Assembly (NCBI GenBank): GCA_048550195.1
Contig: JBLYYR010000051.1
Coordinates: 1 to 57,432 of the forward strand
Reading direction: 5' to 3'
Length of the DNA: 57,432 nt
Source: Arenicellales bacterium
GTDB taxonomy: Bacteria > Pseudomonadota > Gammaproteobacteria > BMS3Bbin11
Below are positions 19,836-38,222 of the stretch, one piece after another. Every line of letters starts with the position of its first letter. The first letter of the stretch is position 1. The notes beneath the pieces are model-generated. The model searched no databases, was not told where the DNA came from, and saw only the letters and a program-made list of their open reading frames with translations. The position numbers and the translations under genes were made by a program.

Positions 19836-19864
19836 GAATGCTCTCTTCTATCCGCAGTGTGGGG

Positions 19865-20200
19865 TTATTCTATTACAACAACCGTGCCGGTCATCTCAGG
19901 ATGTGGGCCGCAGCGGTATGGGAATGACCCCGTTTGTTTGAATTCACGTTCATAGGCATCATCGGGAAACAGGTAGTCATCCGGTTCTTCTTCCCCCAGT
20001 GCTTCGAACCAGACGCTATGATACTGGCGTTTTTCACGGTTTTCCCAACGCAGTATCTGGCCACGTTTAATGGTGATTTCCTGCGGTACAAACTTGTAGT
20101 CCTTGATTGTCACCAATGGCTTAGCATCATCAGCGAATGCGCCAGGTAGAAACGCTGTCAGTATAAAAACCAGTACCAGAGATTGCCACTTCATCAACAT
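19865..20200 (-). CDS. Small cupredoxin (amicyanin-like blue copper protein)
   Basis: 111 aa with a signal peptide. Candidate ligands are His in QYHSVW and the loop C-G-P-H-P-E-M (C-X2-H-X2-M, compare amicyanin CTPHPFM). AAGAGGA Shine-Dalgarno sequence. Confidence 0.75.
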   Translation of the reverse strand: MLMKWQSLVLVFILTAFLPGAFADDAKPLVTIKDYKFVPQEITIKRGQILRWENREKRQYHSVWFEALGEEEPDDYLFPDDAYEREFKQTGSFPYRCGPHPEMTGTVVVIE

Positions 20201-20252
20201 GTCCTCTTCATTTAATGACTATTCAGGCAATCATAACCGAGGCACCGCTCAC

Positions 20253-20287
20253 AAAAAAGGCCACGGGGCAGATATGCCCCCGCGGCC
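20253..20287 (-). terminator. Rho-independent terminator after the NirT-fusion gene
   Basis: The minus strand reads GGCCGCGGGG..loop..CCCCGTGGCC followed by TTTTTT. Confidence 0.6.
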
Positions 20288-20307
20288 CAGTTTACAAATC
20301 AGCCTCT

Positions 20308-22119: not shown

Positions 22120-22198
22120 GATTATTCACCTTGAAGTTTTATCAGTGGATTGCGCAAGGGTCCTGTTGAAAAGCCCCTTGAGTAATACCTGACTGTGG

Positions 22199-22236
22199 AA
22201 AAAAAGGGCGGACGCACTTTCCTGTGTGCCCGCCCT
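22199..22236 (-). terminator. Rho-independent terminator after nirS
   Basis: The minus strand reads AGGGCGG..loop..CCGCCCT followed by seven T. Confidence 0.6.
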
Positions 22237-22266
22237 GATTCATTTACATCGTAACTTATATACTTA

Positions 22267-23934
22267 TCAAGTTACGTGGTTAACACGGTTATACACGTTG
22301 AATTTACCTGTTGGAGCGTAAAGACCTTTAACGCGTGCTTTTTCTTCCAGTGTCTTGGCATCGAAAATGATGATTTCACCGTTAGGTTCCAGGCTGTCCG
22401 CACGATTCCAGACTGATGCCCACACTTCAGTACCATCTTTGTTGAACTCGAAATGAACAGCTGCATAGCCTTTCTTCTCGGTCAGACGGATAGTCTTAAC
22501 AACCTTGCGGGTCTTCTTATCGATGACCTTAACAGACTGCTGGATAGCAGGCTCAGGGTGTTTAGTCTGGTCAGCCCAAACGTAATCACTCTTAGGATGG
22601 GTACGCAGGAATACGCCAGCACCGTCGGTATCGACTTCGTAGCAGATTTTCCAGGCCTGGTCTTTATGGCCTTTAGGATCGTTGCCCCATGCGGTTACCT
22701 TACCAACACCTAAGTGCGTAGTACCGCCTACAGGACCACACTCAGGATCGATCCAGTTTGCACCAGGACCTGGGTGAGGTTTCTTGTCTACGTCGATCAT
22801 TGCTTCCAGTTTTTGACTCACTGTATCAATAACTACCATCTTGTTAGATGCGTTAGCTGCGATCTGGAAATATTGACCGGTAGGATCGTAGAAACCGTCA
22901 TGCAGGAACTTGGCAGTGTTGATCTTGGTAGTCTTGAGGTTTTCCAGGTCAGAGTAATCAACCTGCCACATCTGACCTAATTCCTTCGCAGCCACTAACC
23001 ATGTAGGAGCCATCGGCGTGTCATAGATCGCAGCAACACGTGACTCGTTAACATACTCACCATCAACGTTAATACCACGAGTAGAAACTACTTTCAGCGG
23101 TTCCATGGTTTCAGCATCAGCGATAACGAAATGAGGAGGCCAGTAACCGCCACCGATAACATACTTGCCATCACCGGATACGGCAACGTCACGTGCATCA
23201 TAAGCAACCTGCACCTGGGCCACTTTCATGTTGTCTGGATTAGCCCAGAGGTCGATCTTGGTCATCATGCCATCACGACCCATGATGTACCAGAAACGGC
23301 CAGGATCCTTGGCTTTCAAGGTATCATGATGCTCGACTGTCTTCAGTACATGTACCGCATAACCGGTAGGAATACGCGCAAACACTTCTTTTTTGTCACC
23401 GTCAATAACCGCGATTGTACCTTTATCACGTTCGATGGCGATGAAGAAGTTTTGCCAGTTACGGTCATGCATTGGCTTGGTTGGATAGGCTGCAGGCTCC
23501 ACAAAAACCTTGTGACGTTCTTTCATGAGAGCCAGAGACATTTCAGGGGGAACCGGTGGATCCATCTGGATATAACGAGCCAGCAGGTCGATCTCTTTAT
23601 CATTAAAGATATCATCGAAGTTATTCATGCCGCCTTCGGTACCTATCTTAATAATTTTTGCCAGACGTTTTGTGCCTAACTTAAGAGTACCTTTGGTTTT
23701 CTTGGCTTTATTAGGCTGCGGTTCCAGGTTTTTACCTGTTGCACCTTTACGTAATACGCCATGACAACCGGCACAACGCTGGAAATACATGCTTTTCGCC
23801 TGTTCGAATTCAGCATCATTAAGTGGTACGAATGCCTCCTTCTTGGCGGCTAAAGCAACTCCCGAAGACGCTGCCACCCCTACACATGCAGCGAATAAGA
23901 CTGCTCCGTATTTTGTTGTATGTTTTATACTCAT
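22267..23934 (-). CDS. nirS: Cytochrome cd1 nitrite reductase NirS
   Basis: ATG at 23934 is preceded by AGGAG. It has a signal peptide, a CAGCHG heme c domain and a d1 propeller. It is the first gene of the nir cluster and has a perfect FNR box upstream. Confidence 0.9.
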   Translation of the reverse strand: MSIKHTTKYGAVLFAACVGVAASSGVALAAKKEAFVPLNDAEFEQAKSMYFQRCAGCHGVLRKGATGKNLEPQPNKAKKTKGTLKLGTKRLAKIIKIGTEGGMNNFDDIFNDKEIDLLARYIQMDPPVPPEMSLALMKERHKVFVEPAAYPTKPMHDRNWQNFFIAIERDKGTIAVIDGDKKEVFARIPTGYAVHVLKTVEHHDTLKAKDPGRFWYIMGRDGMMTKIDLWANPDNMKVAQVQVAYDARDVAVSGDGKYVIGGGYWPPHFVIADAETMEPLKVVSTRGINVDGEYVNESRVAAIYDTPMAPTWLVAAKELGQMWQVDYSDLENLKTTKINTAKFLHDGFYDPTGQYFQIAANASNKMVVIDTVSQKLEAMIDVDKKPHPGPGANWIDPECGPVGGTTHLGVGKVTAWGNDPKGHKDQAWKICYEVDTDGAGVFLRTHPKSDYVWADQTKHPEPAIQQSVKVIDKKTRKVVKTIRLTEKKGYAAVHFEFNKDGTEVWASVWNRADSLEPNGEIIIFDAKTLEEKARVKGLYAPTGKFNVYNRVNHVT

Positions 23935-24043
23935 CAATAATACTCCTACTTGGTTTACCAAAAGTTTTTATCACAAACATTGCTAGAATCATTGTTATAA
24001 CCCGATACAGGCGTAACAATATTCTCTATTGATTTCAGGGTCA

Positions 24044-26847: not shown

Positions 26848-27288
26848 GTGACCCTCAACGAAATCATCCCCTATCTCCCTCATTTCCAGGCAATACTTAA
26901 TACTTTATCTGCTATTTTGCTGGGAACGGGTTATTACTTTATTCGATCTCAAAATCGTAGCGCGCATCGTCTGTGCATGATGTCGGCATTTTTAATCTCG
27001 ACAGTATTCCTGATTTCATACCTGACCTATCATGCCAAGGTCGGATACATGCCGTTTACGGGTCAGGGGAGTATCAGGCCGTTTTATTTCACCATGCTTG
27101 CTTCCCACGTTATCCTTGCCGCGGTCATGGTGCCGATGGTCCTGGCAACGGTTACCTATGCACTTTTGGGCAATTTCAACAAACATCCACGCATTGCACG
27201 CTGGACATTACCCGTGTGGCTTTATGTGTCAGTGACCGGTGTACTGATTTACATACTTGGTTTTCACATTTACAAACCTGAACTATAA
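26848..27288 (+). CDS. DUF420 (CtaM-like) membrane protein associated with heme-copper oxidases
   Basis: GTG start, 146 aa, four TM helices. Characteristic HRLCMMSAF...YLTYH...SHVILAA...HPRIARWTLPVWLYVSVTGV pattern. Confidence 0.8.
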   Translation: MTLNEIIPYLPHFQAILNTLSAILLGTGYYFIRSQNRSAHRLCMMSAFLISTVFLISYLTYHAKVGYMPFTGQGSIRPFYFTMLASHVILAAVMVPMVLATVTYALLGNFNKHPRIARWTLPVWLYVSVTGVLIYILGFHIYKPEL

Positions 27289-27681: not shown

Positions 27682-28194
27682 TTATTGAACAGAAAATCCT
27701 TTCAGTTGATCAAACTCAACCAGCAGGATTTGGGCAGGCTTAATGTCTACATCCTTCTCTATTGAATGATTGAACCCCTGTTCACGAACACTGTCATCCA
27801 TTTTTATCTGCAAATGATGTTTACCGACAGGGATTCTACTGCTGTAGTAAATATTTATACTGCCGTCTTTAAATATACCCGGCGGCTGCATTGATTCGTT
27901 GAAGATTACTTTACCGTCCAGTAAAGCTTCAATAATAACTGGCGACCTTTCACGGGGACAATCATCAGGCTTGCGCATGTTTGGAGGCAACTTCATTAAT
28001 TCTTCCTGGCTGATCTTGCGACATGGCTCACGCAAATCACCGGCATGTGCGAAGGCAATAGTAACAATCGCCTCGTCATCTTCGATAATCCGAATTGCTG
28101 GCTGAAAGGAAAAATACCATACCAATGCCATAAAAATGGTGTAATTTATAGCCTGCAATAGATACCGAAGCGCTTTGTTATTCACCCCCTGCAT
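27682..28194 (-). CDS. Membrane-anchored protein of unknown function, coupled to the cytochrome b fusion
   Basis: 170 aa with one N-terminal TM helix. Its ATG overlaps the TGA of the upstream gene (TGATG). Confidence 0.6.
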   Translation of the reverse strand: MQGVNNKALRYLLQAINYTIFMALVWYFSFQPAIRIIEDDEAIVTIAFAHAGDLREPCRKISQEELMKLPPNMRKPDDCPRERSPVIIEALLDGKVIFNESMQPPGIFKDGSINIYYSSRIPVGKHHLQIKMDDSVREQGFNHSIEKDVDIKPAQILLVEFDQLKGFSVQ

Positions 28195-29777
28195 CAGCCA
28201 TTTCCTCCACCAGCATCCTCGGTCACACCGCTGTCGGCTGTATCTTCGAGCTGTTTCAATTTCACCAGCTCAGCGCGAAAATCATTCAAATCATTTTCGA
28301 TTTCATTCTTGTCGGTTTCTGCGCCACCGTGTACACGGATACGACTACGATCAGCACGGCCTCGAAGTATCGGTTTACGTTTACCTTCAAAACGCAGTTT
28401 GGTCCAGCGGTTGCCAAATCGGTAGAAACAGTCATTATGCCGGCAGCCGGCTACCATGATACCATCGGCACCGTTTTTTAAAGCATATTCAACCAGTGTT
28501 GGCGGCAGCATACCGCTACAGAGCAGGCGAACGCCTTTTGTATCATCACTGTCCAGGCGGTTAACATTTAATCCGTGGCCACAGCCATAAATCAGTACTT
28601 TTGTTTCGCCCTGCAAAGCAGCTATTGCCTCATTGGTTTGTGAGCGCATTTTATCAACCGAAAGCTGCGGCATATCTATTCCGGTTTTCAGTTCTTCTTT
28701 TCGTGAGCGGAAGGGATTAGATGAAGGACAGGAACCTGCACAAATCCCGCATGCGGCACACAATGCTGGGTCGACAACCACTTCCTTGTCAAATTTTGCA
28801 CCATCAGTTCGTGCCTGTACCGAGATTGCATCAAAAGGGCAATCATCAAAACACAACTCACAACCATTACAATGATCAAGGTCAACCACCGCTTTTGGGC
28901 CCTCCTTCTTCGGTGGCAGCCACGGTAATAATATTAAAAACCACGTTATGCTTATTGTCAGAATCCAGACCTGGCCTTCCGTCCAGTAGTCAAGCAACGG
29001 GTAAACATTAAGATAAAACCAGTCAAGATTTATCACCTGCGGCATGCTGCTCAGGTCGGCAGGAGCATGACTAACAGCCGGCTTTGCAAAGGACAACGCC
29101 AGTAAAGCCAATAAGGTACCGATAGCGAGACCACGCGGAGGATTTATCTCAACATTGGATAAACGTTTTACGTGCAGCCATAACATAAATGCCAGTAACA
29201 ACGGCTGACCCAGAAGATGTAAAAATTCGATCAAAATAAAAAAACGGTCAGTCATTTCACCGGCGACAAAATTGCGTGTCATGGTGCTGGGAAATAACGG
29301 TAATGCATCCAGCAATCGGGCTGAACCAACCGCAACATATTGCGCCATTTCATCCCACACCAGCCAGTAACCGGTTATGCCTAGAGTAATAATAACCCAC
29401 AGGTTTGGCACACCGGTCACCCAGGAGAACCAGCGGAAGCCACGATAACGACCAGAGGCAAACTCTTTGAACATGTGTAACAAAACCGTAATGATGACGG
29501 CGTCAGATGCATAGCGGTGCAGACTGCGCATAACGCCAGCGGCATACCACTGATCATGCGTAATGTATTCTACTGAGGCGTGGGCACCATCCAGACTACC
29601 GTGAAAGGGAATGAACAGATAGACTCCCGTCACCAGAATCACCCAGAACAGGAAAAAAGATAAGGTGCCCAGATGATACAAAGGATTCCACTGGGTACCA
29701 AATGAAAGGTTAAACCAGGACTCCAGAGCCAGATAGACTCGCTTGACAGGGTTAACTAACACTGAGAAATGTTCCAA
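28194..29777 (-). CDS. Fusion protein: diheme cytochrome b (bc1/b6 type) + 2x[4Fe-4S] ferredoxin + MvhD/FlpD-like domain
   Basis: About six TM helices, with SLH-x13-H (helix B) and FLH-x14-H (helix D). Next come CNGCELCFDDCP and CAACGICAGSCP. The final domain reads IYGCGHG...LLCSGMLPP...GADGIMVAGCRHNDCFYRFGN. The start is TTG at 29777 or GTG at 29762. Confidence 0.8.
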   Translation of the reverse strand: MEHFSVLVNPVKRVYLALESWFNLSFGTQWNPLYHLGTLSFFLFWVILVTGVYLFIPFHGSLDGAHASVEYITHDQWYAAGVMRSLHRYASDAVIITVLLHMFKEFASGRYRGFRWFSWVTGVPNLWVIITLGITGYWLVWDEMAQYVAVGSARLLDALPLFPSTMTRNFVAGEMTDRFFILIEFLHLLGQPLLLAFMLWLHVKRLSNVEINPPRGLAIGTLLALLALSFAKPAVSHAPADLSSMPQVINLDWFYLNVYPLLDYWTEGQVWILTISITWFLILLPWLPPKKEGPKAVVDLDHCNGCELCFDDCPFDAISVQARTDGAKFDKEVVVDPALCAACGICAGSCPSSNPFRSRKEELKTGIDMPQLSVDKMRSQTNEAIAALQGETKVLIYGCGHGLNVNRLDSDDTKGVRLLCSGMLPPTLVEYALKNGADGIMVAGCRHNDCFYRFGNRWTKLRFEGKRKPILRGRADRSRIRVHGGAETDKNEIENDLNDFRAELVKLKQLEDTADSGVTEDAGGGNG

Positions 29778-29867: not shown

Positions 29868-30710
29868 TTACCCTTCAGATGATTTTTTACCCTTGCGCCA
29901 TTCACGGCCTATAAAAGTCACAATAAAGAAAATGACGGTAATGCCAACAAAGATTTCTACAAAAAACGAATAGTCAAAATAATATCCATCACTACGTGGG
30001 TCATAGGTAGTGCAAAACAGTTTAATTTTATCGCTCAACCCTGAAAAAAATGACTGCTCAGGTTTGGGTCTCCCCAGCACCAGTTCAAGTAGCGGGTCAA
30101 CCAGTAGTGGTGTATCAAAAACCTGTCCATAAACCTGCCGGTAGACTTTGCCATCAGCATCAATAACCGTTGCCTGAATTAAGTGGTCAAAACCACTTGC
30201 TGTCGGATAATAAAGAAAGCCCAGGTCTTCTGATAAAGCGCCTAAATCTTCTTCAGCAACACTCAACAGATTCCATTTTTTATTACTGATGCCCTGTTTA
30301 TTAGCAAAATATTGCATCGCATCAGGTGTATCAACGCTGGTATCAAAACCAATAACTGCAACAGAGAAACTATCTTCGCCCAATGCATCGCGTGCCTTCT
30401 CCACCACTTTAGACAGGTGCCGGGTGGTCATCGGGCATATCTGATAACAACTGGTGTAAACCATGCTCAATACCAGCGGTTTGCCACGAAAGTCATCCAG
30501 TGTTACCGGCTTGCCTTCAGCATTGATAAAGGCATGGTTAGCTAGCTGTTGGCCAATTGCTGACTGACTGGTTTTTAGTGCCGTATCGTAATCGAATTCC
30601 TGTTTGACCTCTTTATTAATTGGTACTTCCGCAGAAAGAAAATCTACCCCAGCAACACGGAATGGGATTATAAGCAGCAAAAGACAGCTTAATATAATGG
30701 TATATCGCAT
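29868..30710 (-). CDS. SCO1/SenC-family copper chaperone with C-terminal TM extension
   Basis: Signal peptide, thioredoxin-like CYQICP (CXXXC) motif, and a C-terminal hydrophobic helix. Confidence 0.85.
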   Translation of the reverse strand: MRYTIILSCLLLLIIPFRVAGVDFLSAEVPINKEVKQEFDYDTALKTSQSAIGQQLANHAFINAEGKPVTLDDFRGKPLVLSMVYTSCYQICPMTTRHLSKVVEKARDALGEDSFSVAVIGFDTSVDTPDAMQYFANKQGISNKKWNLLSVAEEDLGALSEDLGFLYYPTASGFDHLIQATVIDADGKVYRQVYGQVFDTPLLVDPLLELVLGRPKPEQSFFSGLSDKIKLFCTTYDPRSDGYYFDYSFFVEIFVGITVIFFIVTFIGREWRKGKKSSEG

Positions 30711-30739: not shown

Positions 30740-31603
30740 TTAAGCGAGAAAATAGACGTCAAGAAGAGCGCCAACGAGAAGCAGCACCAACTGTACCAGT
30801 GAGGCAAAAAAGCTCTTCATTGCAACCTCTGGCGAAGGATCGAGGATCATTTTATAATTTTGATAAATAAAATACCCCCCCCCGATGACAGCGCCTGTAA
30901 GATAAATCCAGTTCAAACCATAATAATATGGCAGTATAGAAATACCAACCAGGATCAGAGTATTGCCCATCACCACAATCGCAGTCGACTTGTCCCCGAT
31001 CACAACCGGTAACATGGGTATGCCGGCTTTGGCATAATCCTGATGCTTGGCAATGGCCAGACTCCAGAAATGTGAAGGTGTCCAGAAAAACAGGACGAGT
31101 GCCAACAAAACAGGCACCGGGCTCAAAACCGGATCTACAGCAGCGGCACCTGCAAGCACAGCAAAACTGCCTGATGCACCGCCAATAACTATATTCATCC
31201 AGGTGCGGCGCTTCAGCCATACCGTGTAGATGATGGCATAAAAGAAAGCACCTAAAAAGATATAAGATGCAGCCGCAGTGCTTAAAAATATAGCTGCGGA
31301 ACCCACACCTGCGCCCAATAGCGACAATATAAACAATATCCACAACGGACTTTTATGGAAGCGACCGGTTACAAACGGTCGGTCTTTTGTGCGTTGCATC
31401 ACACTGTCGAGGTCAACCTCAAAGTACTGGTTAAACGCACCCGCGCTACCTGCAGAGATAAGTACAGCAAACGCCAGCACCAGAATCTGCATACTATCAA
31501 GCGCCGGTCCCGGCGTGACGACCATGGCAACCAGTGCTGTGAGCATCATGATAACGCCAATACGCAGTTTTAAGAGATTTGATATTTGTTTGAACATATC
31601 CAT
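30740..31603 (-). CDS. ctaB: Protoheme IX farnesyltransferase (heme O synthase)
   Basis: 287 aa polytopic UbiA-family protein with typical CyoE/CtaB regions (NQYFEVDLDSVMQRTKDRP). Confidence 0.9.
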   Translation of the reverse strand: MDMFKQISNLLKLRIGVIMMLTALVAMVVTPGPALDSMQILVLAFAVLISAGSAGAFNQYFEVDLDSVMQRTKDRPFVTGRFHKSPLWILFILSLLGAGVGSAAIFLSTAAASYIFLGAFFYAIIYTVWLKRRTWMNIVIGGASGSFAVLAGAAAVDPVLSPVPVLLALVLFFWTPSHFWSLAIAKHQDYAKAGIPMLPVVIGDKSTAIVVMGNTLILVGISILPYYYGLNWIYLTGAVIGGGYFIYQNYKMILDPSPEVAMKSFFASLVQLVLLLVGALLDVYFLA

Positions 31604-31765: not shown

Positions 31766-33496
31766 CTAACTAAGCGGCCAGACAGATGCCAGATAGTCCC
31801 AGTTGATAAAGTAGTAAACAACAAAACACACCAGTAGCGCCATCGCAAGAACAAATGTTCCCGGGGCTTCAAAACCAGCAGAACCGTGTTGCTCTACCAC
31901 TGGTGGAGCCATTGGTAAACGCTCAGGTTGATCAATGGTATAGGCATTTGCCGCCAATGGCACACCAAAGCTCTGCAGGAAACCAGCCTCTGGAGCCAGC
32001 TTCTTACCGAATAGTAAAGTACCTACAGTAACGATCAGATACATCGCACCACCGACAACACCCAGTACACCACCGATAGCACCCACCGCCATCATCAGGT
32101 AGGCCGTGCCTGGATATTCAAAGCTTAATGCAGCGCCGGTAAAATCCATGTCCCAGTGACGGCGTGATACACCAAGAGTACCTGCACCCAGCATGAACAG
32201 AATCATCATCGTCATGCCGCCACCGAATACATAAGGCTGCATTTTAGCCACCCAGGGCAGAATCATTGCACGTCTGAATAACAGTGGAAGTAAAAGGTAG
32301 GTCAAAGCCATAAATGTCAGCGTAGTACCTGTCACTACGGTAGCGTGGAAATGAGCCGGTACATAAATGGTGTTATGAATGATCAGGTTAATCTGCTCAG
32401 TACCCATAACTACGCCGGTTATACCGCCAATGAAACCAAAGGTAACCAGCGATATGAAGAAACCAGAGAAGACCGGATTGCCCCATGGTGCTTTGCGTAA
32501 CCACTCAAACAGACCCTTGGTATAACCTTTGCCTCGTTGCGCAACTTCCATCGCACCCGGAACAGTCAGACCGTGGATCATACTGGCCAATACGGCAAGA
32601 TACATCGCATAACTGGTGTTAAATACTTTCCACTCAGAGCTTATGCCTGGATCAACCAGAATGTGGTGAGCACTGGCTAACTGCAGGAAGAAGATATAAA
32701 GCAGGAACGCACTGCGGCTGACTTTCTCTGACATCGGACGGGCACCGAATAAAACGCCGGTGATCAGATACCAGACAGAAACGTGAGCGGCGACGTTAAT
32801 CTGCTGAGAAGAGTGACCCATACCCCACCAGATAACACGGTACATTTCTGCATCAATATGATTGATATAACCGATAGACCAGAGGAAAGTCGGTACCAGA
32901 ATGATTGCACCACTGGCAATGGTGAAAACAGCAATAATGGCCGCTGTCAGCGCACCAAAGGTTACCAGCGGAATAGAGCCATCATAGGTTTTATCCTCTT
33001 TGGCGATAACCAATGTGCCAAGAAAGACGAAACAGCCGATTAATGCACCCACGGCAAACAGGATTAAGCCCAGATAGAAGTGGGGCTCTGCCTGCATCGG
33101 TACATAGGAGGTCATCATTACGCTTGAATTGCCCTGCATCACTGCGACGTTGTTCATCACTGCACCGACAAGCATCAGCACAAACCCTGTCCAGGCCCAC
33201 CGTGGCGCAGCCAGTCGCGTACGCAACAGCGTCGACGAGGCAAAATACAGGATCGCAATTTCAAAGAAAATAATCCAGAAGATCAGCGCATTAATACCAT
33301 GCGAAGTCAGTACCTGGTAGAACATATCTGCTGGCAGCAAATGTACTTCCTGCCAGCGAGTCAAAACGACACCCAGTGCCATTATTCCGGCAACCAGCAG
33401 TGCTACAGCACCCGCCACGGCATTCGCCTTCATCAGGCTTTCAGCAGACTTGTCAAAAAAGAAACCCGTATCCGGGCAAACCCTGAATTTTGCCAT
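31766..33496 (-). CDS. Heme-copper oxidoreductase subunit I, B-family (ba3)-like, lacking the cross-link Tyr
   Basis: 576 aa. Motifs are TSHGINALIFW, WWGMGHSSQQINV, LASAHHILVDPG, GLFEWLRKAPWGNPVF and YVPAHFHATV. By eye these align closely with Thermus ba3 subunit I as I recall it. Confidence 0.9.
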   Translation of the reverse strand: MAKFRVCPDTGFFFDKSAESLMKANAVAGAVALLVAGIMALGVVLTRWQEVHLLPADMFYQVLTSHGINALIFWIIFFEIAILYFASSTLLRTRLAAPRWAWTGFVLMLVGAVMNNVAVMQGNSSVMMTSYVPMQAEPHFYLGLILFAVGALIGCFVFLGTLVIAKEDKTYDGSIPLVTFGALTAAIIAVFTIASGAIILVPTFLWSIGYINHIDAEMYRVIWWGMGHSSQQINVAAHVSVWYLITGVLFGARPMSEKVSRSAFLLYIFFLQLASAHHILVDPGISSEWKVFNTSYAMYLAVLASMIHGLTVPGAMEVAQRGKGYTKGLFEWLRKAPWGNPVFSGFFISLVTFGFIGGITGVVMGTEQINLIIHNTIYVPAHFHATVVTGTTLTFMALTYLLLPLLFRRAMILPWVAKMQPYVFGGGMTMMILFMLGAGTLGVSRRHWDMDFTGAALSFEYPGTAYLMMAVGAIGGVLGVVGGAMYLIVTVGTLLFGKKLAPEAGFLQSFGVPLAANAYTIDQPERLPMAPPVVEQHGSAGFEAPGTFVLAMALLVCFVVYYFINWDYLASVWPLS

Positions 33497-33497
33497 T

Positions 33498-34037
33498 TTA
33501 ATTCTCCGTCACAATGATTTTGCCAAGCATGGTATGGTGGCCGATGCCGCAATATTCGTTACAAACAACAGCAAAATCACCTGCCTGATCAGGGGTCATG
33601 GTGACAACCATTTCATAGCCAGGAATAATTTGCAGGTTAATATTTACAGGCTGTAAAGAAAAACCATGGTTCCAGTCCATCGATGAAAGATGCACACGAT
33701 AGGACTGATCCTTTTCCAGTTCGAAAATTGGATACCACTGCCATAACCTGCCCAGCATATAAATATCGCTGCCAGCCGGTGGACGTACAATAGGAATGCC
33801 GGCTTCCTCACCGACCTTGTATTTCTCGACCATTTCATCGACCCTGGCCTGAAATTTTGCCGGTGTCGTCTGATAGGCTTCGTTAGAAAGGTTTTGTTTA
33901 CCGTAGATATGCCAGTAAGGCATCATGAAAAACATGATTAAACACCACACCAGTGCAATGCCTATCCACACAATCTCCTCTTTACCAACCGGGACATTCC
34001 ACCAGATCCGCTCTGAAGGGGGTAAAAATGAAGTCAT
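33498..34037 (-). CDS. Heme-copper oxidoreductase subunit II with complete CuA site
   Basis: ATG at 34037 is preceded by AAGGAG. It has one TM helix and a cupredoxin domain with DWNHGF and CNEYCGIGHHTM. The stop lies 1 nt from the subunit I ATG. Confidence 0.85.
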   Translation of the reverse strand: MTSFLPPSERIWWNVPVGKEEIVWIGIALVWCLIMFFMMPYWHIYGKQNLSNEAYQTTPAKFQARVDEMVEKYKVGEEAGIPIVRPPAGSDIYMLGRLWQWYPIFELEKDQSYRVHLSSMDWNHGFSLQPVNINLQIIPGYEMVVTMTPDQAGDFAVVCNEYCGIGHHTMLGKIIVTEN

Positions 34038-34048
34038 TGATATTCTCC

Positions 34049-34207
34049 TTAAGGTGCGACAGGTATAGTGGCGATTTCCATGACTCCCCACAATATATAG
34101 AAAACTGTGGGCATGGCGATACCGATGAACAGTAACAGGAATGGGTTATCGAGCATCCTCTGAAAAAATGGGATTTTCTCTGGTTTAGGGATATCTTCCT
34201 CGGACAT
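34049..34207 (-). CDS. Unlisted 52-aa single-TM ORF (possible subunit IIa-like small subunit)
   Basis: MSEEDIPKPEKIPFFQRMLDNPFLLLFIGIAMPTVFYILWGVMEIATIPVAP. It ends 11 nt before the subunit II ATG. It is too short for the ORF track, and the listed 34091 start of subunit II runs through it in another frame. Confidence 0.5.
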   Translation of the reverse strand: MSEEDIPKPEKIPFFQRMLDNPFLLLFIGIAMPTVFYILWGVMEIATIPVAP

Positions 34208-34392: not shown

Positions 34393-34668
34393 ATGTCCTC
34401 AATCTACATCAAAAATAACGTCAAAACTCTAACACGAATATTGTCAATATCCACTAACTACCGAATAAATAACGGCTACTTGACCTGCATCATAGATAGC
34501 GACACGCAATAATTATATCCTGCAAAGCCACTGACCAGTACAAATACTGCTTGAAGGGGATATAACGATATCCTGCAAGATATAATCAGCAGTATCATTT
34601 AAGACGATTACAATATAATACAAAACGGATCGTGTAGAGCGGTCTTAATCTTACACAGGAACCTGTTG

Positions 34669-35145
34669 ATGGCATTAATTGAATGGCGAGAAGAGTTTTG
34701 CACCGGTGTACCGGGCGTCGATTTCGAACACCAGGAGCTCATAAACGAGATCAATTCGATCTTTGCATTGATTGATGACAGGGCAGATAAGGACGATGTG
34801 CTAGATAGCCTGGGTGATATTTATGGAAGTATATCGGCTCATTTTGCACTGGAAGAGCAGATGATGGAAAAGCACAATTATGATCATTTCAAGGAACATC
34901 AGGCTGATCACGAACGCCTGCTTGATGAAATTCGTGACATTACCATTGAATTTGAAAATGCTACTGAACTGGACGCGGAGAAATTCACCCAAAAACTGAA
35001 CGACTGGTTCCAGCTACATTTTGGGACACATGATTCACGTTTACACGGTCTGGCACACTTGATAAATCATCAAACGGTTAGCGAATCAACACTGAAAACG
35101 ATGATACGTAACGCAAAAAATGCTTTCTTGACCAAGACAGGGTGA
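34669..35145 (+). CDS. Bacteriohemerythrin
   Basis: IEWREEFCTGVPGVDFEHQELI, HFALEE, HQADH and WFQLHFGTHD motifs. ATG at 34669 (the listed start at 34666 is TTG). Confidence 0.8.
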   Translation: MALIEWREEFCTGVPGVDFEHQELINEINSIFALIDDRADKDDVLDSLGDIYGSISAHFALEEQMMEKHNYDHFKEHQADHERLLDEIRDITIEFENATELDAEKFTQKLNDWFQLHFGTHDSRLHGLAHLINHQTVSESTLKTMIRNAKNAFLTKTG

Positions 35146-35206
35146 GGTTCTCTGGCTAAACAGACTTATCACGACTATTAAAACTATTTGAACGAGCATT
35201 TACCCA

Positions 35207-35719
35207 ATGAGAAACCCTTTACTAAAAATTTTGTTTACCGGCTTATTAACTGTACTGACCGTATTCCCTGGGATTTCCCATGCACTGCAGGCAACAGATA
35301 ACACGAGCATCTTTAATGGTTATTATGCTCGCGCAGGCAACAATGGCAGCCCGTCAAGAACACTCCATCATAATGTCTATATGAAACTGTATGCAGACGA
35401 AGGTCAGCAATGGGTTGCATTGCTGCATATTCCGCTGCCTTATGGCTCCACTGTTGATGAGGCCGTTATCCCAGAAATTTTCAAAAAAATCCGTAAACAG
35501 CTAAATTCCAGTTCTTTCGTCAGGGACACCTTTGGCTATTTAGATGAAAAAGCAACCGTACAGTTTGAACGGTTTGGTTACATTCAGGATAAAATCATTT
35601 TCGAATGCGGCTCGCTGGCTCCCTGCACGATCAGACCGGCTGATGGTTATCTGGAGCTAATAAAACCAGGAATGATCAATGAGCATATCATCAAGTACGA
35701 TCACGTGGTTACGCAGTAA
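35207..35719 (+). CDS. Secreted protein of unknown function
   Basis: 170 aa with a signal peptide ending ISHA-LQ. I recognise no family. Confidence 0.55.
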   Translation: MRNPLLKILFTGLLTVLTVFPGISHALQATDNTSIFNGYYARAGNNGSPSRTLHHNVYMKLYADEGQQWVALLHIPLPYGSTVDEAVIPEIFKKIRKQLNSSSFVRDTFGYLDEKATVQFERFGYIQDKIIFECGSLAPCTIRPADGYLELIKPGMINEHIIKYDHVVTQ

Positions 35720-35756
35720 GCATCAGAGCAACACTTTATAAGAAACAGGACAAATC

Positions 35757-36398
35757 ATGACCAGCAAAAAAATACCTATTGGCACAATTGTTATATTTGG
35801 ATTTTTTTTGATTACCATGGTTGCTGCTTATTTTCTGACGAAACCATCACCGCCACCAGCAGAACTGGCGGGCGTACTTCGTCCGGACTTTAAACTACTT
35901 CAACCATTCGAACTGACAGACCACAACAATACAGTGTTCAACGAGAAAAACCTTCTGGATAAATGGAGTTTTGTGTTTTTTGGTTTCACTTCCTGCCCCC
36001 ATATCTGCCCTACAACATTGAATGTTCTGAATTCGGTTCATGGTTTACTGGTAGAGGAAACAGGTGAAATCCCTGATGACATGCAGGTGGTCTTTATCTC
36101 GGTAGACCCAGATCGTGATAGCATCGAAAAAATCGCGGGTTATATTACGAAATTCAATAAAGACTTTATCGGTACAGGAGCAGACAAGGCAAAAATCGAC
36201 AAAGTAGCCCGACAATTTGGTTCTGGTTATGTCAAAGACCCGGAAACCTCTGCTGGCGAATACAACGTCTCACACACCAGTGCAATATTTCTGGTAGACC
36301 CTTATGGTCGACTGGTAGCTACTTTTTCACAGCCACACCAGCCGTCTACCATCGCCTCGCAGTATAATAAAATACGAAAGTATTTTTCCTGGGACTAA
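35757..36398 (+). CDS. SCO1/SenC-family copper chaperone (second paralog)
   Basis: N-terminal TM anchor, FGFTSCPHICP (CXXXC), and a downstream conserved His (SHTSAIFLVD). Confidence 0.85.
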   Translation: MTSKKIPIGTIVIFGFFLITMVAAYFLTKPSPPPAELAGVLRPDFKLLQPFELTDHNNTVFNEKNLLDKWSFVFFGFTSCPHICPTTLNVLNSVHGLLVEETGEIPDDMQVVFISVDPDRDSIEKIAGYITKFNKDFIGTGADKAKIDKVARQFGSGYVKDPETSAGEYNVSHTSAIFLVDPYGRLVATFSQPHQPSTIASQYNKIRKYFSWD

Positions 36399-36614
36399 CT
36401 AAACGGTATCGTTACGCCCTTTCCGCTTATCTGCCTTTTTCCACGCCCTGAAAGCCCAGATAAAATACGCAGATATCATTACGATGTTGATGACGCCGCC
36501 TATCAGATAAAAATTATTGGTGAGATCTTTTTCCTCAGCAGCTGGAACAGATACAGGCTGCTCTGTGTAAAGATTAACGGTGTTCTTGGCGGGAGATAGT
36601 TCTGTTGTATTCAT
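36399..36614 (-). CDS. Small single-TM protein
   Basis: 71 aa with one hydrophobic helix and a basic C-terminus. It is divergent from the 458-aa HCO-like gene. Confidence 0.4.
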   Translation of the reverse strand: MNTTELSPAKNTVNLYTEQPVSVPAAEEKDLTNNFYLIGGVINIVMISAYFIWAFRAWKKADKRKGRNDTV

Positions 36615-36695
36615 AAGAATTATTCAACCACTCTATTTCGTGGTCATGTGGTTAATATATTTCACGAACTCTATCCTGTGTTTAATCATAAAACA

Positions 36696-36709
36696 ATGAT
36701 ATAGGTCAA
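36696..36709. promoter_or_regulatory. Weaker FNR-like box ATGAT-ATAG-GTCAA
   Basis: 8 of 10 match to TTGAT-N4-ATCAA, about 137 nt upstream of the ATG at 36846. Confidence 0.35.
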
Positions 36710-36845
36710 ACAACGGTATTGGGTCGTTGTCTTTAAGGTATCAGCAGATGCATTGAAGCTTGAATGCCATTACAATATCGTCAACATTTGTGACTCTGCC
36801 ACCTTAAGCAAGCCCTACTAACAAAATAGTTTTAGTAAACCCACC

Positions 36846-38222
36846 ATGCTGCCCAACCAATTCTCCCTGCTAACGCAACAGTTCACGTTACCTGCACCCG
36901 ATAACGATGCCCGGCGGATGACGGCCGGCTGGTTATTCCTTGGTCTGGCGGCACTGGTCATCGGTGGTCTGTTTACCATCCTGATTGTTCTCTCCCGTAC
37001 CCCTTTCTTTCAGGACATCATCCCCTGGGTAGATTTTTTCCGTACCGCCCTGGTGGTCCATGTTGACCTGACTGTACTGGTCTGGTTCCTGGCATTCTCT
37101 GGTGTTTTATGGAGCTACAATAGTACGAATAAATGCCTGCAGTGTGGATGGGTCGCTTTACTGATGGCCAGTGCAGGAACCCTGATCATAACAATCTCCC
37201 CTTTTACCGGTGAAAGCCACCCGTTAATGAGCAATTATGTGCCGGTATTACAGAGCACAGTATTTTTTACCGGCCTCGGTTTATTTGGGCTCGGCTACGG
37301 CCTGCTGGTACTGCGCATGCTTATGACTACATTGGCAGCACGAAACAATAACGGAGGCGAAGTCTTACGCTTTGGTCTGTTTGTCGCTGTTGTCGCCTCC
37401 TTATTCGCCTTAGCTGCGCTCATGTTGTCTTATCTTGGTATCAACGACGACTTCAAAGGCGAGGCTTATTACGACCGACTGTTCTGGGGCAGTGGCCATA
37501 TACTGCAATTTAGCCATACCCAGTTGATGCTGGTTGCCTGGTTATGGCTAGCTACGGTCAGTGGTGCCTTCCTCAGACTAACACCCCGTGTAGTGCTTAT
37601 ATTATTTGTCATGGGTTTGTTGCCGGTATTAATGGTACCCATCATTTATGTATCATTTGATGTCAGCTCCGGTGACCATATGTTCTGGTTTATTCAGCTA
37701 ATGAAGTACGGCGGTGCAATTGCAGCTGTTCCCATTGGCCTGGCAACCACGCTCGCCATCGTAGAAAGATGGCGACCTGTCCCTGGCTTTGAAATTGAGC
37801 GCAGCGCACTGATTTTTTCAATTCTGCTATTTGGCGTGGGTGGTATTATCGGCTTCATGATCAGTGGCAGCGACGTAAGGGTCACCGCCCATTATCATGG
37901 CTCTATCGTTGGTGTAACACTTGCCTTCATGGGTATGGCCTATCACCTTCTTCCACAGCTGGGCTTCAGAAAAGTCAGCGGACGTGCAGCACGATGGCAA
38001 CCTGGAATCTACGGCATTGGCCAGCTGCTGCACATCATTGGCCTGGCATGGTCGGGCGGGTATGGCGTGCAACGTAAAACGGCCGGTGCAGAACAGGGCC
38101 TGGAAAAGTTTGAACAGATTGCTGGAATGGGTTTAATGGGGCTGGGAGGATTAATCTCAATTATTGGTGGTATTATTTTTCTGGTTGTTGTCTATCAGGC
38201 AATAAAACCGGATAAGAAATGA
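36846..38222 (+). CDS. Heme-copper oxidase subunit-I-like membrane protein with an altered active-site ligand set
   Basis: 458 aa, about 12 TM helices. Motifs are ALVVHVDLTVLVWF, LFWGSGHILQF, SSGDHMFWF (Asp-His where His-His is expected) and VTAHYHGSIVG. No subunit II gene is adjacent. Confidence 0.75.
   Translation: MLPNQFSLLTQQFTLPAPDNDARRMTAGWLFLGLAALVIGGLFTILIVLSRTPFFQDIIPWVDFFRTALVVHVDLTVLVWFLAFSGVLWSYNSTNKCLQCGWVALLMASAGTLIITISPFTGESHPLMSNYVPVLQSTVFFTGLGLFGLGYGLLVLRMLMTTLAARNNNGGEVLRFGLFVAVVASLFALAALMLSYLGINDDFKGEAYYDRLFWGSGHILQFSHTQLMLVAWLWLATVSGAFLRLTPRVVLILFVMGLLPVLMVPIIYVSFDVSSGDHMFWFIQLMKYGGAIAAVPIGLATTLAIVERWRPVPGFEIERSALIFSILLFGVGGIIGFMISGSDVRVTAHYHGSIVGVTLAFMGMAYHLLPQLGFRKVSGRAARWQPGIYGIGQLLHIIGLAWSGGYGVQRKTAGAEQGLEKFEQIAGMGLMGLGGLISIIGGIIFLVVVYQAIKPDKK

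Follow-up and report, generated by a model that had tools for sequence, protein, structure and literature searches.

On the evidence of its sequence and gene neighbourhood, the cytochrome b/2x[4Fe-4S]/MvhD-like fusion protein encoded in the window (the whole 57,432-nucleotide stretch of Arenicellales DNA analysed here) is a widespread membrane redox protein that travels with eNOR, a heme-copper NO reductase. Together with the 170-aa protein encoded directly downstream, it very probably represents a real redox subunit dedicated to eNOR and, somewhat less firmly, it appears to link the quinone pool, eNOR and a cytoplasmic carrier. More specifically, we tentatively propose a Rieske-less, quinol-oxidising electron-input module of eNOR that works in the bifurcating direction, a reading to which we give a probability of roughly 0.35. 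The features discussed are listed in Table 1.

Table 1. Positions in the window of the fusion gene and its modules, the eNOR cassette and the accessory operon
Feature	Position	Strand	Basis or remark
Cytochrome b/2x[4Fe-4S]/MvhD-like fusion gene	28194..29762	-	522 aa, GTG at 29762
Membrane module, b6-like diheme cytochrome b, helices A-F	28908..29762	-	PF00033, PDB sequence matches, Foldseek, motif conservation
2x[4Fe-4S] ferredoxin module, cytoplasmic	28722..28892	-	Fer4, Fer4_7, invariant Cys
MvhD/FlpD-like module, cytoplasmic	28257..28601	-	PF02662 and four conserved Cys
Fourth module as a separate gene, 170 aa, no known family	27682..28194	-	TM helix and periplasmic beta-sandwich
SCO1/SenC-like protein with an extra C-terminal TM helix	29868..30710	-	PF02630; directly upstream of the fusion
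Heme o synthase (CtaB/CyoE)	30740..31603	-	PF01040; TIGR01473, 257 bits (cutoff 210)
eNOR subunit I, B-family-related heme-copper oxidoreductase	31766..33496	-	PF00115; Gln replaces cross-linked Tyr
eNOR subunit II, complete CuA motif (H...CNEYCGIGHHTM)	33498..34091	-	PF00116, TIGR02866, translation
Divergent accessory operon	34666..38222	+	Pfam, pairwise alignment; flanks the cassette in many loci
Hemerythrin, accessory operon	34666-35145	+	Pfam
170-aa ORF of the accessory operon, no assigned family	35207-35719	+	
SCO1, accessory operon	35757-36398	+	Pfam
COX1-like protein without the CuB His pair, accessory operon	36846-38222	+	Pfam, pairwise alignment

Structure and authenticity of the fusion gene

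The longest open reading frame of the fusion (28194..29777, minus strand) reaches a TTG codon at 29777 and encodes the 527 aa of the original prediction. The frame stands, but homolog N-termini (MLVNP...) point to the GTG in Table 1 as the likely start, which shortens the product to 522 aa. At the junction with the 170-aa gene (...GGCTGATGCAG...), the TGA stop and the ATG start have one A in common, the TGATG overlap that had been predicted. Pfam and NCBIfam profile searches bore out three modules in one ORF, and every motif quoted in the original prediction was found in the protein. Modelled as a single chain with AF2, the fusion gave a pLDDT of 92.3 and a pTM of 0.90. Promoter and terminator scans yielded counts close to shuffle expectation.

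The possibility that the ORF is an assembly chimera, raised with the original prediction, was refuted by its recurrence. Near-identical architectures were found in more than 100 independent clusters (75-85% identity), and 501 representatives (50% identity) were retrieved at E<=1e-30. The FlpD-type fusion is present in at least 563 species genomes; the genome scan used a 10-sequence alignment, the 39-sequence alignment used for conservation (29-79% identity to the window protein, mostly 30-45%) being too diverse for a scan. The fusion occurs in complete genomes and in one genome of 5.2 Mb, and the whole cassette lies in a complete genome and on a Defluviimonas plasmid from a cultured strain, where it is self-contained. 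The hosts include many sulfur- and iron-oxidising autotrophs. With a high-confidence single-chain model as well, and ligands that are invariant at ~30% identity, a chimera or a decaying gene fusion without function deserves hardly any credence.

The eNOR cassette and its neighbourhood

The run of genes with SCO1 and ctaB was recovered as predicted, but the "atypical oxidase" upstream is, by alignment, an eNOR-type NO reductase. Subunit I carries GHSSQQ where ba3 oxidases have GHPVVY, and Gln at the position of the cross-linked Tyr is diagnostic of eNOR (PMC8756737). NO reductase activity and a modified heme a have been demonstrated for the Rhodothermus marinus enzyme only (PMC11214002). With an eNOR-type NO reductase as partner, the system would be part of denitrification and not of aerobic respiration. 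An sNOR was considered on account of the similar norSY-senC-orf1 gene order of ammonia oxidisers and was rejected: the active site has the eNOR Gln, and the fourth gene differs. In sNOR clusters this gene (cbaD/orf1) encodes a six-TM protein of ~190 aa (PMC3475470), whereas in the window SCO1 is followed by the 522-aa fusion.

The order eNOR-II, eNOR-I, (CtaB), SCO1, fusion, 170-aa protein is conserved in 57 of 62 informative loci. The neighbourhood survey proposed with the original prediction asked whether the gene always occurs with the oxidase and SCO1, and in these 57 loci it lies behind both. SCO1 is naturally fused to cytochrome b in one protein (P0248), and in locus L082 a paralog with a CPR-type module is preceded by PCuAC, CtaG and SCO1. 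In ~38 of 81 loci, as on the Defluviimonas plasmid, the gene immediately after the 170-aa gene encodes a hemerythrin; many other loci lack it. In Magnetococcales, the pair of fusion and 170-aa genes heads a nirS operon, with SCO1 and eNOR absent within 10 kb. The 458-aa COX1-like protein of the accessory operon had no match in PDB and NCBIfam searches.

The cytochrome b membrane module

The assignment as a diheme cytochrome b held. Pfam Cytochrome_B (PF00033) matches residues 31-206 with 63 bits (cutoff 27.2) and PF13631 scores 45.2 (cutoff 27). The top NCBIfam matches of this part are ExtP/cytochrome b6 (E 6e-27 and 7e-23), with ExtQ over helices E-F. In Foldseek, the fusion model aligned with bc1 cytochrome b over ~287 columns (TM (target) 0.55-0.60, E 4e-8), covering helices A-F including the ef loop. 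The heme ligand pairs are H87/H187 and H101/H202 (motifs H87-x13-H101 and H187-x14-H202), and all four His are invariant in the 39 homologs and retained in the FNR- and CPR-type paralogs described below. The original description as bc1-type needs qualification: because of the x14 spacing in helix D and the best PDB sequence matches (cytochrome b6, E 1.6e-16), the module is b6-like and not mitochondrial bc1-like. Topology analysis upheld six TM helices and, by the positive-inside rule, an N-in and C-in orientation, with the Fe-S modules in the cytoplasm.

Both a cd1 motif (GYWLVWD..AQ) and an ef-loop motif (L-D252-W-F-Y) are present. D252 of the ef loop is invariant (39/39), as are G136 and D142 of cd1, and these Qo-type features, together with W141, are retained in all variants, whichever cytoplasmic module they carry. 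The analysis shows a conserved Qo-like pocket on the periplasmic side, a putative quinol site.

The fold of helices A-F, the four bis-His ligands and the cd1 motif are shared with the Rieske/cytochrome b complexes (bc1, b6f), and DWFY is the equivalent of their PEWY/PDWY. Unlike these complexes, the fusion has only six helices, followed by the Fe-S modules, and we found no helices G/H, complete subunit IV or cytochrome c1/f subunit; nor does the operon contain a c-type heme gene. The predicted lack of a Rieske partner was confirmed for the window, where no ORF of at least 80 aa contains a CxH...CxxH motif, and for the conserved neighbours in 81 loci, among which no Rieske gene occurs. A heme cn as in b6f was rejected, the equivalent of Cys35 being Q, H or Y. 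Also in contrast to bc1/b6f, the n-side is taken by the fused Fe-S chain, with no evident Qi site, and the gene belongs to a NO-reductase operon.

The cytoplasmic Fe-S and MvhD modules

Like cytochrome b, the MvhD/FlpD assignment was supported by profile scores above curated cutoffs. Fer4 and Fer4_7 match residues 296-352 (Fer4_7 35.3 bits, cutoff 27), and FlpD (PF02662) matches residues 413-507 (57.6 bits, cutoff 22.3). The ferredoxin motifs CNGCELCFDDCP and CAACGICAGSCP correspond to two CxxCxxCxxxCP motifs (C303, C306, C309, C313 and C340, C343, C346, C350), all eight Cys being invariant in 39 sequences. The C-terminal module carries the MvhD-type motif LLCSGMLPP...GCRHNDCFYRFGN; its C399 and C420 are conserved in 39/39 sequences, C445 in 38/39 and C450 in 35/39. 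In the alignment with MvhD (5odc_D, E 3e-10), C420, C445 and C450 fall on conserved MvhD Cys, and the four residues presumably form a [2Fe-2S] site.

The best NCBIfam match for the C-terminal part is the HdrA2 C-terminus (ferredoxin and MvhD, E 3e-29). As in HdrA2 and the MvhD of methanogen Mvh-Hdr, residues 294-510 consist of a 2x[4Fe-4S] ferredoxin followed by MvhD, with the conserved Cys pattern. Unlike in Mvh-Hdr, the domain is anchored to a cytochrome b in the membrane, its hosts are denitrifying Proteobacteria, and no HdrA-like flavoprotein, HdrBC or [NiFe]-hydrogenase is encoded nearby; neither the window neighbourhood nor the annotated loci L001, L082, L083 and L084 contain a HdrA-like or [NiFe]-hydrogenase partner. 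The original prediction stated that MvhD domains serve heterodisulfide-reductase-like partners. Such a partner is not required here, because the MvhD end is one of at least three interchangeable modules, the others being NAD(P)H-binding. In paralogs, Fer4 and MvhD are replaced by FNR-type (Fer2-FAD-NAD) or CPR-type (flavodoxin-FAD-NADPH) modules, with the one-electron carrier (Fer2 or flavodoxin) adjoining cytochrome b, and FlpD-type and NAD(P)H-type paralogs are found together in one operon. In databases the family bears misnomers such as "hydrogenase iron-sulfur subunit" and "F420-reducing hydrogenase delta subunit", which may lead to false hydrogenase calls in metagenomes.

The 170-aa protein as a fourth module

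The 170-aa protein had been described as coupled to the fusion. The linkage was recovered (the gene lies downstream of the fusion gene in 70 of 80 loci), but the protein is more than coupled: it is an integral, periplasmic fourth module, fused onto the C-terminus of the cytochrome b fusion in 58 of 150 representatives. An N-in TM helix (residues 7-30) is followed by a periplasmic eight-strand beta-sandwich (model pLDDT 93.4). No Pfam match was obtained for the protein and no significant PDB fold match for the model. A copper site was considered and rejected, as the model is a plain beta-sandwich that matched no solved fold significantly, whether cupredoxin, PCuAC, Rieske or another. H50, (H72), M73 and H126 are semi-conserved and C58/C79 form a co-varying pair; the module appears to be without an evident cofactor, and we claim none.

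Comparison with known systems

Nothing characterised has this architecture, as the original prediction supposed, but the family is common and related genes have been flagged as unusual. According to a 2026 preprint, genes 2878407319 and 2878407323 of the Ferrigenium straubiae eNOR operon are possibly Ferrigenium-specific markers, both proteins were detected in the proteome during nitrate-reducing Fe(II)-oxidising growth, and NO reduction was proposed to be coupled to NAD+ reduction (bioRxiv 10.64898/2026.01.22.701106). These genes share the operon type and protein family and the Gallionellaceae arrangement of L060, L068 and L078, in which a FNR-type cytochrome b fusion accompanies a cytochrome b-[Fe-S] fusion. 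The preprint says nothing of an MvhD/FlpD domain, of module swapping or of Qo-type motifs, and the occurrence of the FlpD-type form reported above contrasts with a marker specific to Ferrigenium.

The Rieske/cytochrome b complexes of anammox bacteria that include NAD(P) oxidoreductase subunits (Kuste4569-4574 and Kustd1480-1485), for which quinol bifurcation is so far a proposal (PMC12954380), also join cytochrome b on the cytoplasmic side to an Fe-S chain, and both they and the FNR-type paralogs join it to FAD and NAD(P). In that proposal, too, one branch feeds a nitrogen-oxide reaction of high potential, and the other ends at an acceptor of low potential in the cytoplasm. Rieske proteins and multiheme c subunits belong to the anammox complexes, in which the reductase is a subunit of its own, whereas the fusion is Rieske-less, has everything in one chain with a MvhD-type end, and is partnered by a heme-copper NO reductase.

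In QmoABC and NarGHI, quinol is oxidised on the periplasmic side and electrons pass through two b hemes to a cytoplasmic Fe-S chain; QmoB has a MvhD-like domain. The wiring of a diheme membrane subunit to cytoplasmic clusters is shared, but the cytochromes b of these complexes belong to the NarI/HdrE type, which is unrelated to bc1/b6, and serve a cytoplasmic APS or nitrate reductase, whereas the heme-copper partner of the fusion faces the periplasm. SoxC of the Sulfolobus SoxABCD quinol oxidase (NCBIfam match E 6e-10) is likewise a Rieske-less cytochrome b homolog encoded and assembled with a heme-copper oxidase; it carries no Fe-S or flavin module in the cytoplasm, and it is paired with an O2 reductase.

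Direction of electron flow

The electron wire from the quinone pool to the cytoplasm that had been predicted survives as a general path, and needs revision as to the role of eNOR, module 4 and the swappable ends. We infer, from gene order only, that the four-module protein would be in a complex with eNOR. Quinol would be oxidised at the Qo-like site, the first electron passing to the periplasmic side of eNOR, where the CuA domain would stand in for the Rieske head and docking would be assisted by the beta-sandwich module. The second electron would cross the membrane via hemes bL and bH, enter the Fe-S chain and be handed to a carrier in the cytoplasm. For the fusion this would be a ferredoxin-like partner, for the FNR- and CPR-type paralogs NAD(P)+. 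Highly exergonic NO reduction would thereby drive some of the electrons from quinol to low potential, a Rieske-independent quinol bifurcation. The full form of this proposal, a bifurcating NO-reductase supercomplex in which eNOR is the high-potential branch and bL/bH with Fe-S/MvhD (or FNR/CPR) the low-potential branch yielding reduced ferredoxin or NAD(P)H, is a shade more doubtful than the bifurcating input module itself.

Several lines of evidence argue for electron input: the architecture, the ligands, the coherent single-chain model, the topology, the Qo features, the missing heme-cn Cys and Rieske motif, the eNOR identity of the neighbour and its CuA site, synteny, the cassette in a complete genome and on a plasmid, the Rosetta-stone fusions with module 4, and module swapping. 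Also counted in its support are the sulfur- and iron-oxidising autotrophic hosts, the independent Ferrigenium proposal with proteomic detection, and the anammox analogy (PMC12954380). Energetics and the swappable modules stand against bifurcation. Ubiquinone lies at about +90 mV and a typical CuA near +250 mV; by our own calculation from standard potentials, the first acceptor would have to lie effectively above about +600 mV if the second electron is to reach about -320 mV with the membrane potential opposing it. To our knowledge, almost all known modules of the FNR (BenC/MmoC) type, and even more so those of the CPR type, oxidise NAD(P)H, which favours electron flow outward from the cytoplasm. 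The electron route to eNOR is left unexplained by a fourth module without evident cofactor, and the neighbouring genes encode no partner in the cytoplasm for the MvhD domain.

An outward transmembrane reductase resembling NOX/FRE or MsrQ, rather unlikely in our estimate, would turn this path around: electrons would come from a cytoplasmic donor, which is NAD(P)H for the FNR- and CPR-type paralogs and otherwise ferredoxin or some other partner acting through the MvhD and Fer4 clusters, and would pass to bH, then bL, and finally to eNOR or NirS on the periplasmic side. NO would then be reduced without recourse to the bc1/cytochrome c chain, and the Qo-like pocket would be where a partner docks, where electrons exit or where they have a second way in. 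The paralogs have just the BenC/MmoC- and CPR/CysJ-type modules, with the carrier beside cytochrome b, that in characterised enzymes oxidise NAD(P)H and pass single electrons to heme or Fe-S acceptors. The path would be downhill throughout and aided by the membrane potential, the cassette is self-contained on a plasmid, and the Magnetococcales link to periplasmic NirS fits a general electron supplier. This reading leaves the retention of the Qo-type motifs (D252, G136, D142, W141) in every variant unexplained, spending ferredoxin-level reductant on NO would be wasteful for autotrophs, and FlpD- and NAD(P)H-type paralogs in one operon are not simply redundant.

Two further readings are improbable, each to much the same degree. 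In a linear redox loop like that of NarGHI or Qmo, both electrons of periplasmic quinol oxidation would run through the hemes and Fe-S clusters to a higher-potential cytoplasmic acceptor, for which the neighbouring hemerythrin-type di-iron protein is a candidate, and proton-motive force would be made independently of eNOR. NarI-NarH and QmoC-QmoB likewise combine a quinol site on the periplasmic side with two hemes and an Fe-S chain in the cytoplasm, and the position of hemerythrin after the 170-aa gene fits; many loci lack it, however, the near-obligate linkage to eNOR and SCO1 is not accounted for, and the scheme cannot hold for NAD(P)-binding paralogs, where electrons from quinol would have to climb to NAD(P)+ and do so against the membrane potential. 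Alternatively, the protein could deliver reducing equivalents to the periplasm for assembly of the eNOR metal centres, by reduction of Cu(II) or of SCO1/CuA cysteines, by provision of Fe(II) for an FeB site, or in a redox step for the modified heme a. Eukaryotic diheme ferric/cupric reductases are a precedent; the gene lies among assembly genes (CtaB, SCO1) after the structural genes, SCO1 immediately precedes the fusion in the 57 loci and likewise the CPR-type paralog in L082, SCO1 is fused to cytochrome b in P0248, and module 4 has semi-conserved His and Met. Other heme-copper oxidases need no such protein, though, the Qo-type pocket would have no reason to be conserved, and module 4 lacks a cupredoxin, PCuAC or other metallochaperone fold. 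Both Ferrigenium fusions also appear in the proteome beside eNOR. The Magnetococcales pair, heading a nirS operon away from SCO1 and eNOR, suggests electron supply to periplasmic denitrification enzymes rather than copper assembly.

Significance

Much of the NO reduction and N2O formation in the environment is attributed to enzymes of the eNOR type (PMC11214002). Most proteobacterial eNOR operons encode a cytochrome b protein of their own, equipped with a Qo-type pocket and with a redox module in the cytoplasm, and this fusion family is a concrete candidate for the missing electron-input component of eNOR. It suggests either a Rieske-free quinol bifurcation yielding low-potential reductant or a route by which bacteria pass electrons from reductant in the cytoplasm to a respiratory enzyme that faces the periplasm. 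Either route, if true, would alter the calculated energy yield of denitrification in autotrophic sulfur- and iron-oxidisers, and bifurcation would give these denitrifiers low-potential reductant without reverse electron transport driven by the proton-motive force.

Architecture of the Fusion and Its Family

Profile searches back all three modules originally predicted for the 527-residue protein: Cytochrome_B matches residues 31-206 (63 bits, cutoff 27.2), two Fer4 motifs occupy residues 296-352, and FlpD matches residues 413-507 (57.6 bits, cutoff 22.3). Its top NCBIfam matches include the HdrA2 C-terminus (ferredoxin-plus-MvhD, E 3e-29), the b-type cytochrome ExtP, cytochrome b6 and, for helices E-F, ExtQ. 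Both open reading frames lie where they had been placed (see the table), and the stop codon of the fusion overlaps the start codon of the partner gene as described (GGCTGATGCAG, one base common to both codons). The true start of the fusion is probably a GTG, giving 522 residues, because close homologs begin with MLVNP...

By hydropathy and the positive-inside rule, the protein crosses the membrane six times and has both termini in the cytoplasm; the Fe-S modules are therefore cytoplasmic, in agreement with the original prediction. Cytochrome b6 is the top sequence match among solved structures, and the predicted structure (pLDDT 92.3, pTM 0.90) overlays helices A-F of bc1 cytochrome b. Comparison of this model with the PDB found no structure spanning the entire architecture. 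The heme ligands of helix D are spaced H-x14-H in the window protein and in a paralog with flavodoxin, FAD and NADPH domains (CPR type); the spacing is H-x13-H in seven of nine relatives compared.

Features of the cassette, its surroundings and two related loci (window coordinates unless a locus is named)
Feature	Coordinates	Strand	Remarks
NirS paralogs	22267-23961 and 18240-19835	-	nitrite-reductase cluster, 18240-23961
Cupredoxin	19865-20200	-	nitrite-reductase cluster
NapC/NirT tetraheme + ethylbenzene-dehydrogenase-like (EB_dh) fusion	20308-22119	-	603 aa
DUF420 gene	26848-27288	+	convergent to cassette
Partner ORF	27682..28194	-	170 aa
Fusion ORF	28194..29777	-	527 aa
Helix D of fusion	29160-29225		
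Probable GTG start of fusion	29762		522 aa
SCO1-like protein	29868-30710	-	
ORF without family match	35207-35719	+	170 aa; between hemerythrin gene and second SCO1 gene
COX1-like protein	36846-38222	+	458 aa
Plasmid cassette (L084)	NZ_CP156080.1 14059-20598		Defluviimonas sp. SAOS-178_SWC; proteins WP_347309654.1 and WP_347309655.1
CPR-type fusion locus (L082)	L082 5544-10484		PCuAC (LpqE-like), CtaG, SCO1 before; NnrS gene after

More than 100 clusters (75-85% identity) found by a word-indexed search share an identical domain list; NCBI names them "hydrogenase iron-sulfur subunit", IMG "coenzyme F420-reducing hydrogenase delta subunit/ferredoxin". In an exhaustive HMMER search, 4309 of the 50%-identity representatives matched at E<=1e-3, 501 of them at E<=1e-30; among the best 150, the majority align over residues ~10-505. 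The matching architecture of these clusters and the 501 representatives rule out an assembly artefact or chimera. Across 39 aligned members (29-79% identical to the window protein, mostly 30-45%), the four heme His, the eight ferredoxin Cys, C399 and C420 are invariant, and C445 and C450 nearly so; C420, C445 and C450 align with the conserved Cys of MvhD in 5odc. A pattern scan that took a single genome for each species found relatives in at least 563 species. The hosts among the species listed are Gamma-, Alpha-, Beta- and Zetaproteobacteria and Magnetococcales, with numerous sulfur or iron oxidisers.

The Partner Protein Is a Fourth Module

The small partner had been described as a coupled single-helix membrane protein. 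The coupling and the single transmembrane (TM) helix stand, and the protein is in reality a fourth module: more than 60 long members of the family match it in phmmer searches through their C-terminal ~150 residues, at E values as low as 2e-38, and the best 150 representatives include 58 four-module single chains and 60 three-module proteins. It belongs to no Pfam family and is annotated everywhere as hypothetical. In the model (pLDDT 93.4), a TM helix at the N-terminus leads into a beta-sandwich of eight strands. The sandwich must be periplasmic, because the helix comes after the cytoplasmic domain in the fused forms. Foldseek found only weak Ig/FnIII/CBM-like similarities (best E 6e-3). Some His/Met positions and one co-varying Cys pair are semi-conserved, notwithstanding which no claim for a cofactor site can be made.

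Linkage to eNOR

The fusion is preceded, in the same orientation, by a COX2-like gene, a COX1 gene, a heme o synthase gene and a SCO1-like gene. The COX1 protein is nearest to ba3-type (B-family) oxidases and has GHSSQQ against their GHPVVY, with Gln in place of the cross-linked Tyr. Since this replacement is a published diagnostic of eNOR (PMC8756737), an NO reductase family described in PMC11214002, the window enzyme is of the eNOR type. The CuA motif of its subunit II is complete. Denitrification genes surround the cassette: two NirS, a NirT fusion, a cupredoxin, a cytochrome c and hemerythrins. The sNOR cluster norSY-senC-orf1 of ammonia oxidisers was considered and rejected, its fourth gene encoding a small six-TM protein, not the fusion.

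Conserved linkage to this oxidase and SCO1, originally left as a question, was found in a survey of 80 retrieved loci and one complete genome. The order eNOR-II, eNOR-I, (CtaB), SCO1, fusion, 170-aa gene is near-universal; eNOR and SCO1 lie upstream on the same strand in 57 of the 62 loci with sufficient upstream sequence, and the 170-aa gene directly follows the fusion in 70/80. The exceptions are one orphan copy among housekeeping genes and four Magnetococcales loci (L021, L023, L028 and L029) in which the pair lies away from eNOR. It directly precedes nirS in the last three, with unrelated genes upstream, and in L021 nirS is ~7 kb downstream. The whole cassette, from the COX2-like gene to the terminal hemerythrin, is carried on a 165-kb plasmid of a cultured Defluviimonas, where RefSeq names eNOR subunit I "cbb3-type cytochrome c oxidase subunit I".

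Several neighbouring genes deserve mention. The SCO1-like protein ends in an additional TM helix, which leads the chain back into the cytoplasm. The COX1-like protein of 458 aa retains the His for both hemes and the first CuB His; neither the HH pair among the CuB ligands nor the Tyr is present, so that a binuclear centre cannot form. No NCBIfam or PDB sequence match was found for it. Its gene is near the cassette in 32/81 loci, in many of them directly after the 170-aa gene. The ORF between the hemerythrin and second SCO1 genes is kept, in that position, in ~10 related loci. The DUF420 gene, found near the cassette in 9/81 loci, presumably represents CtaM, a family associated with the assembly of heme-copper oxidases.

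Swapped Cytoplasmic Modules and a Constant Pocket

In Polaromonas and Gallionellaceae loci, the gene after SCO1 encodes a cytochrome b-Fer2-FAD_binding_6-NAD_binding_1 fusion (FNR type), with the Fer4-FlpD paralog further downstream. The CPR-type (CysJ-like) paralog follows PCuAC, CtaG and SCO1; its locus also holds a Fer4-FlpD fusion. Among 83 loci, 74 have FlpD alone, six FNR and FlpD, two a pair of FlpD forms, and one FlpD and CPR. SCO1 is fused N-terminally to the cytochrome b in one metagenomic representative (P0248).

All variants retain the four His, the cd1 motif GYW(L/M)xWD..AQ and the ef-loop motif DWFYL; D252, G136 and D142 are invariant. These cd1 and ef-loop elements are equivalent to those of the bc1/b6f Qo pocket, including the acidic residue of PEWY/PDWY. 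The heme cn-binding Cys of b6 is absent, and the window contains no Rieske motif. The cytoplasmic end is modular and the Qo-like pocket constant.

Discussion

The main text of the eNOR papers does not mention ferredoxin, and their mentions of cytochrome b describe no partner of this kind. A bioRxiv preprint (May 2026; 10.64898/2026.01.22.701106) describes the eNOR operon of Ferrigenium straubiae and calls unusual two genes "with partial similarity to bc1 complex chain C", one encoding cytochrome b + [Fe-S] + FAD + NADH and the other cytochrome b + [Fe-S]. It proposes a quinol:NAD+ oxidoreductase and a supercomplex in which the reduction of NO would be coupled to that of NAD+, reports all four proteins in a proteome, and does not mention MvhD/FlpD. 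The 458-aa COX1-like protein may be the "eNOR scaffold protein" of this preprint. The nearest older concept comes from anammox, where quinol bifurcation to NAD(P)+ was proposed for Rieske/cytochrome b complexes that have NAD(P) oxidoreductase subunits on their cytoplasmic side (PMC12954380).

The analysis establishes the architecture, its cofactor ligands and topology, the Qo-type motifs, the absence of a Rieske protein, the linkage to eNOR, the fourth module and the exchange of cytoplasmic modules. We infer a physical complex of the fusion with eNOR, and a direction of electron flow. Our tentative main reading, at a probability of about 0.35, is a Rieske-less Qo-type bifurcating module. Quinol would be oxidised at the periplasmic pocket; its first electron would pass to eNOR (CuA), and the second would travel by way of bL, bH, both [4Fe-4S] clusters and the MvhD-type cluster, ending on a carrier in the cytoplasm. 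No other reading uses the Qo-type pocket, the low-potential-type cytoplasmic module and the eNOR linkage together. Against it stand the very oxidising first acceptor needed and a fourth module without an evident cofactor.

An outward route of the NOX/MsrQ kind, by which a cytoplasmic reductant would feed eNOR, gains from the NAD(P)H-oxidising character of the FNR- and CPR-type modules and from favourable energetics; we consider it rather unlikely, and it would leave the conserved Qo pocket unexplained. A linear loop, in which the electrons would end on an acceptor in the cytoplasm (for example hemerythrin, whose gene often adjoins), would share the overall layout of Nar and Qmo but is impossible for the NAD(P) paralogs and seems improbable for the family. 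Maturation of SCO1 or metal centres has a similarly slim chance: the position among assembly genes and the SCO1-cytochrome b fusion suggest such a role, while the Magnetococcales context, the fold of the fourth module and the Qo conservation argue against it.

Overall, the original prediction held as an observation and, in part, as an interpretation. An accessory to NO reductases of the eNOR type, the fusion is common, mis-annotated and uncharacterised, and is best described as fitting the theme of a cytochrome b connected to a redox module in the cytoplasm. Its newness is tempered by its abundance in the databases and by the 2026 preprint; its chief interest is as a testable candidate for the electron feed of eNOR, possibly by Rieske-free quinol bifurcation.
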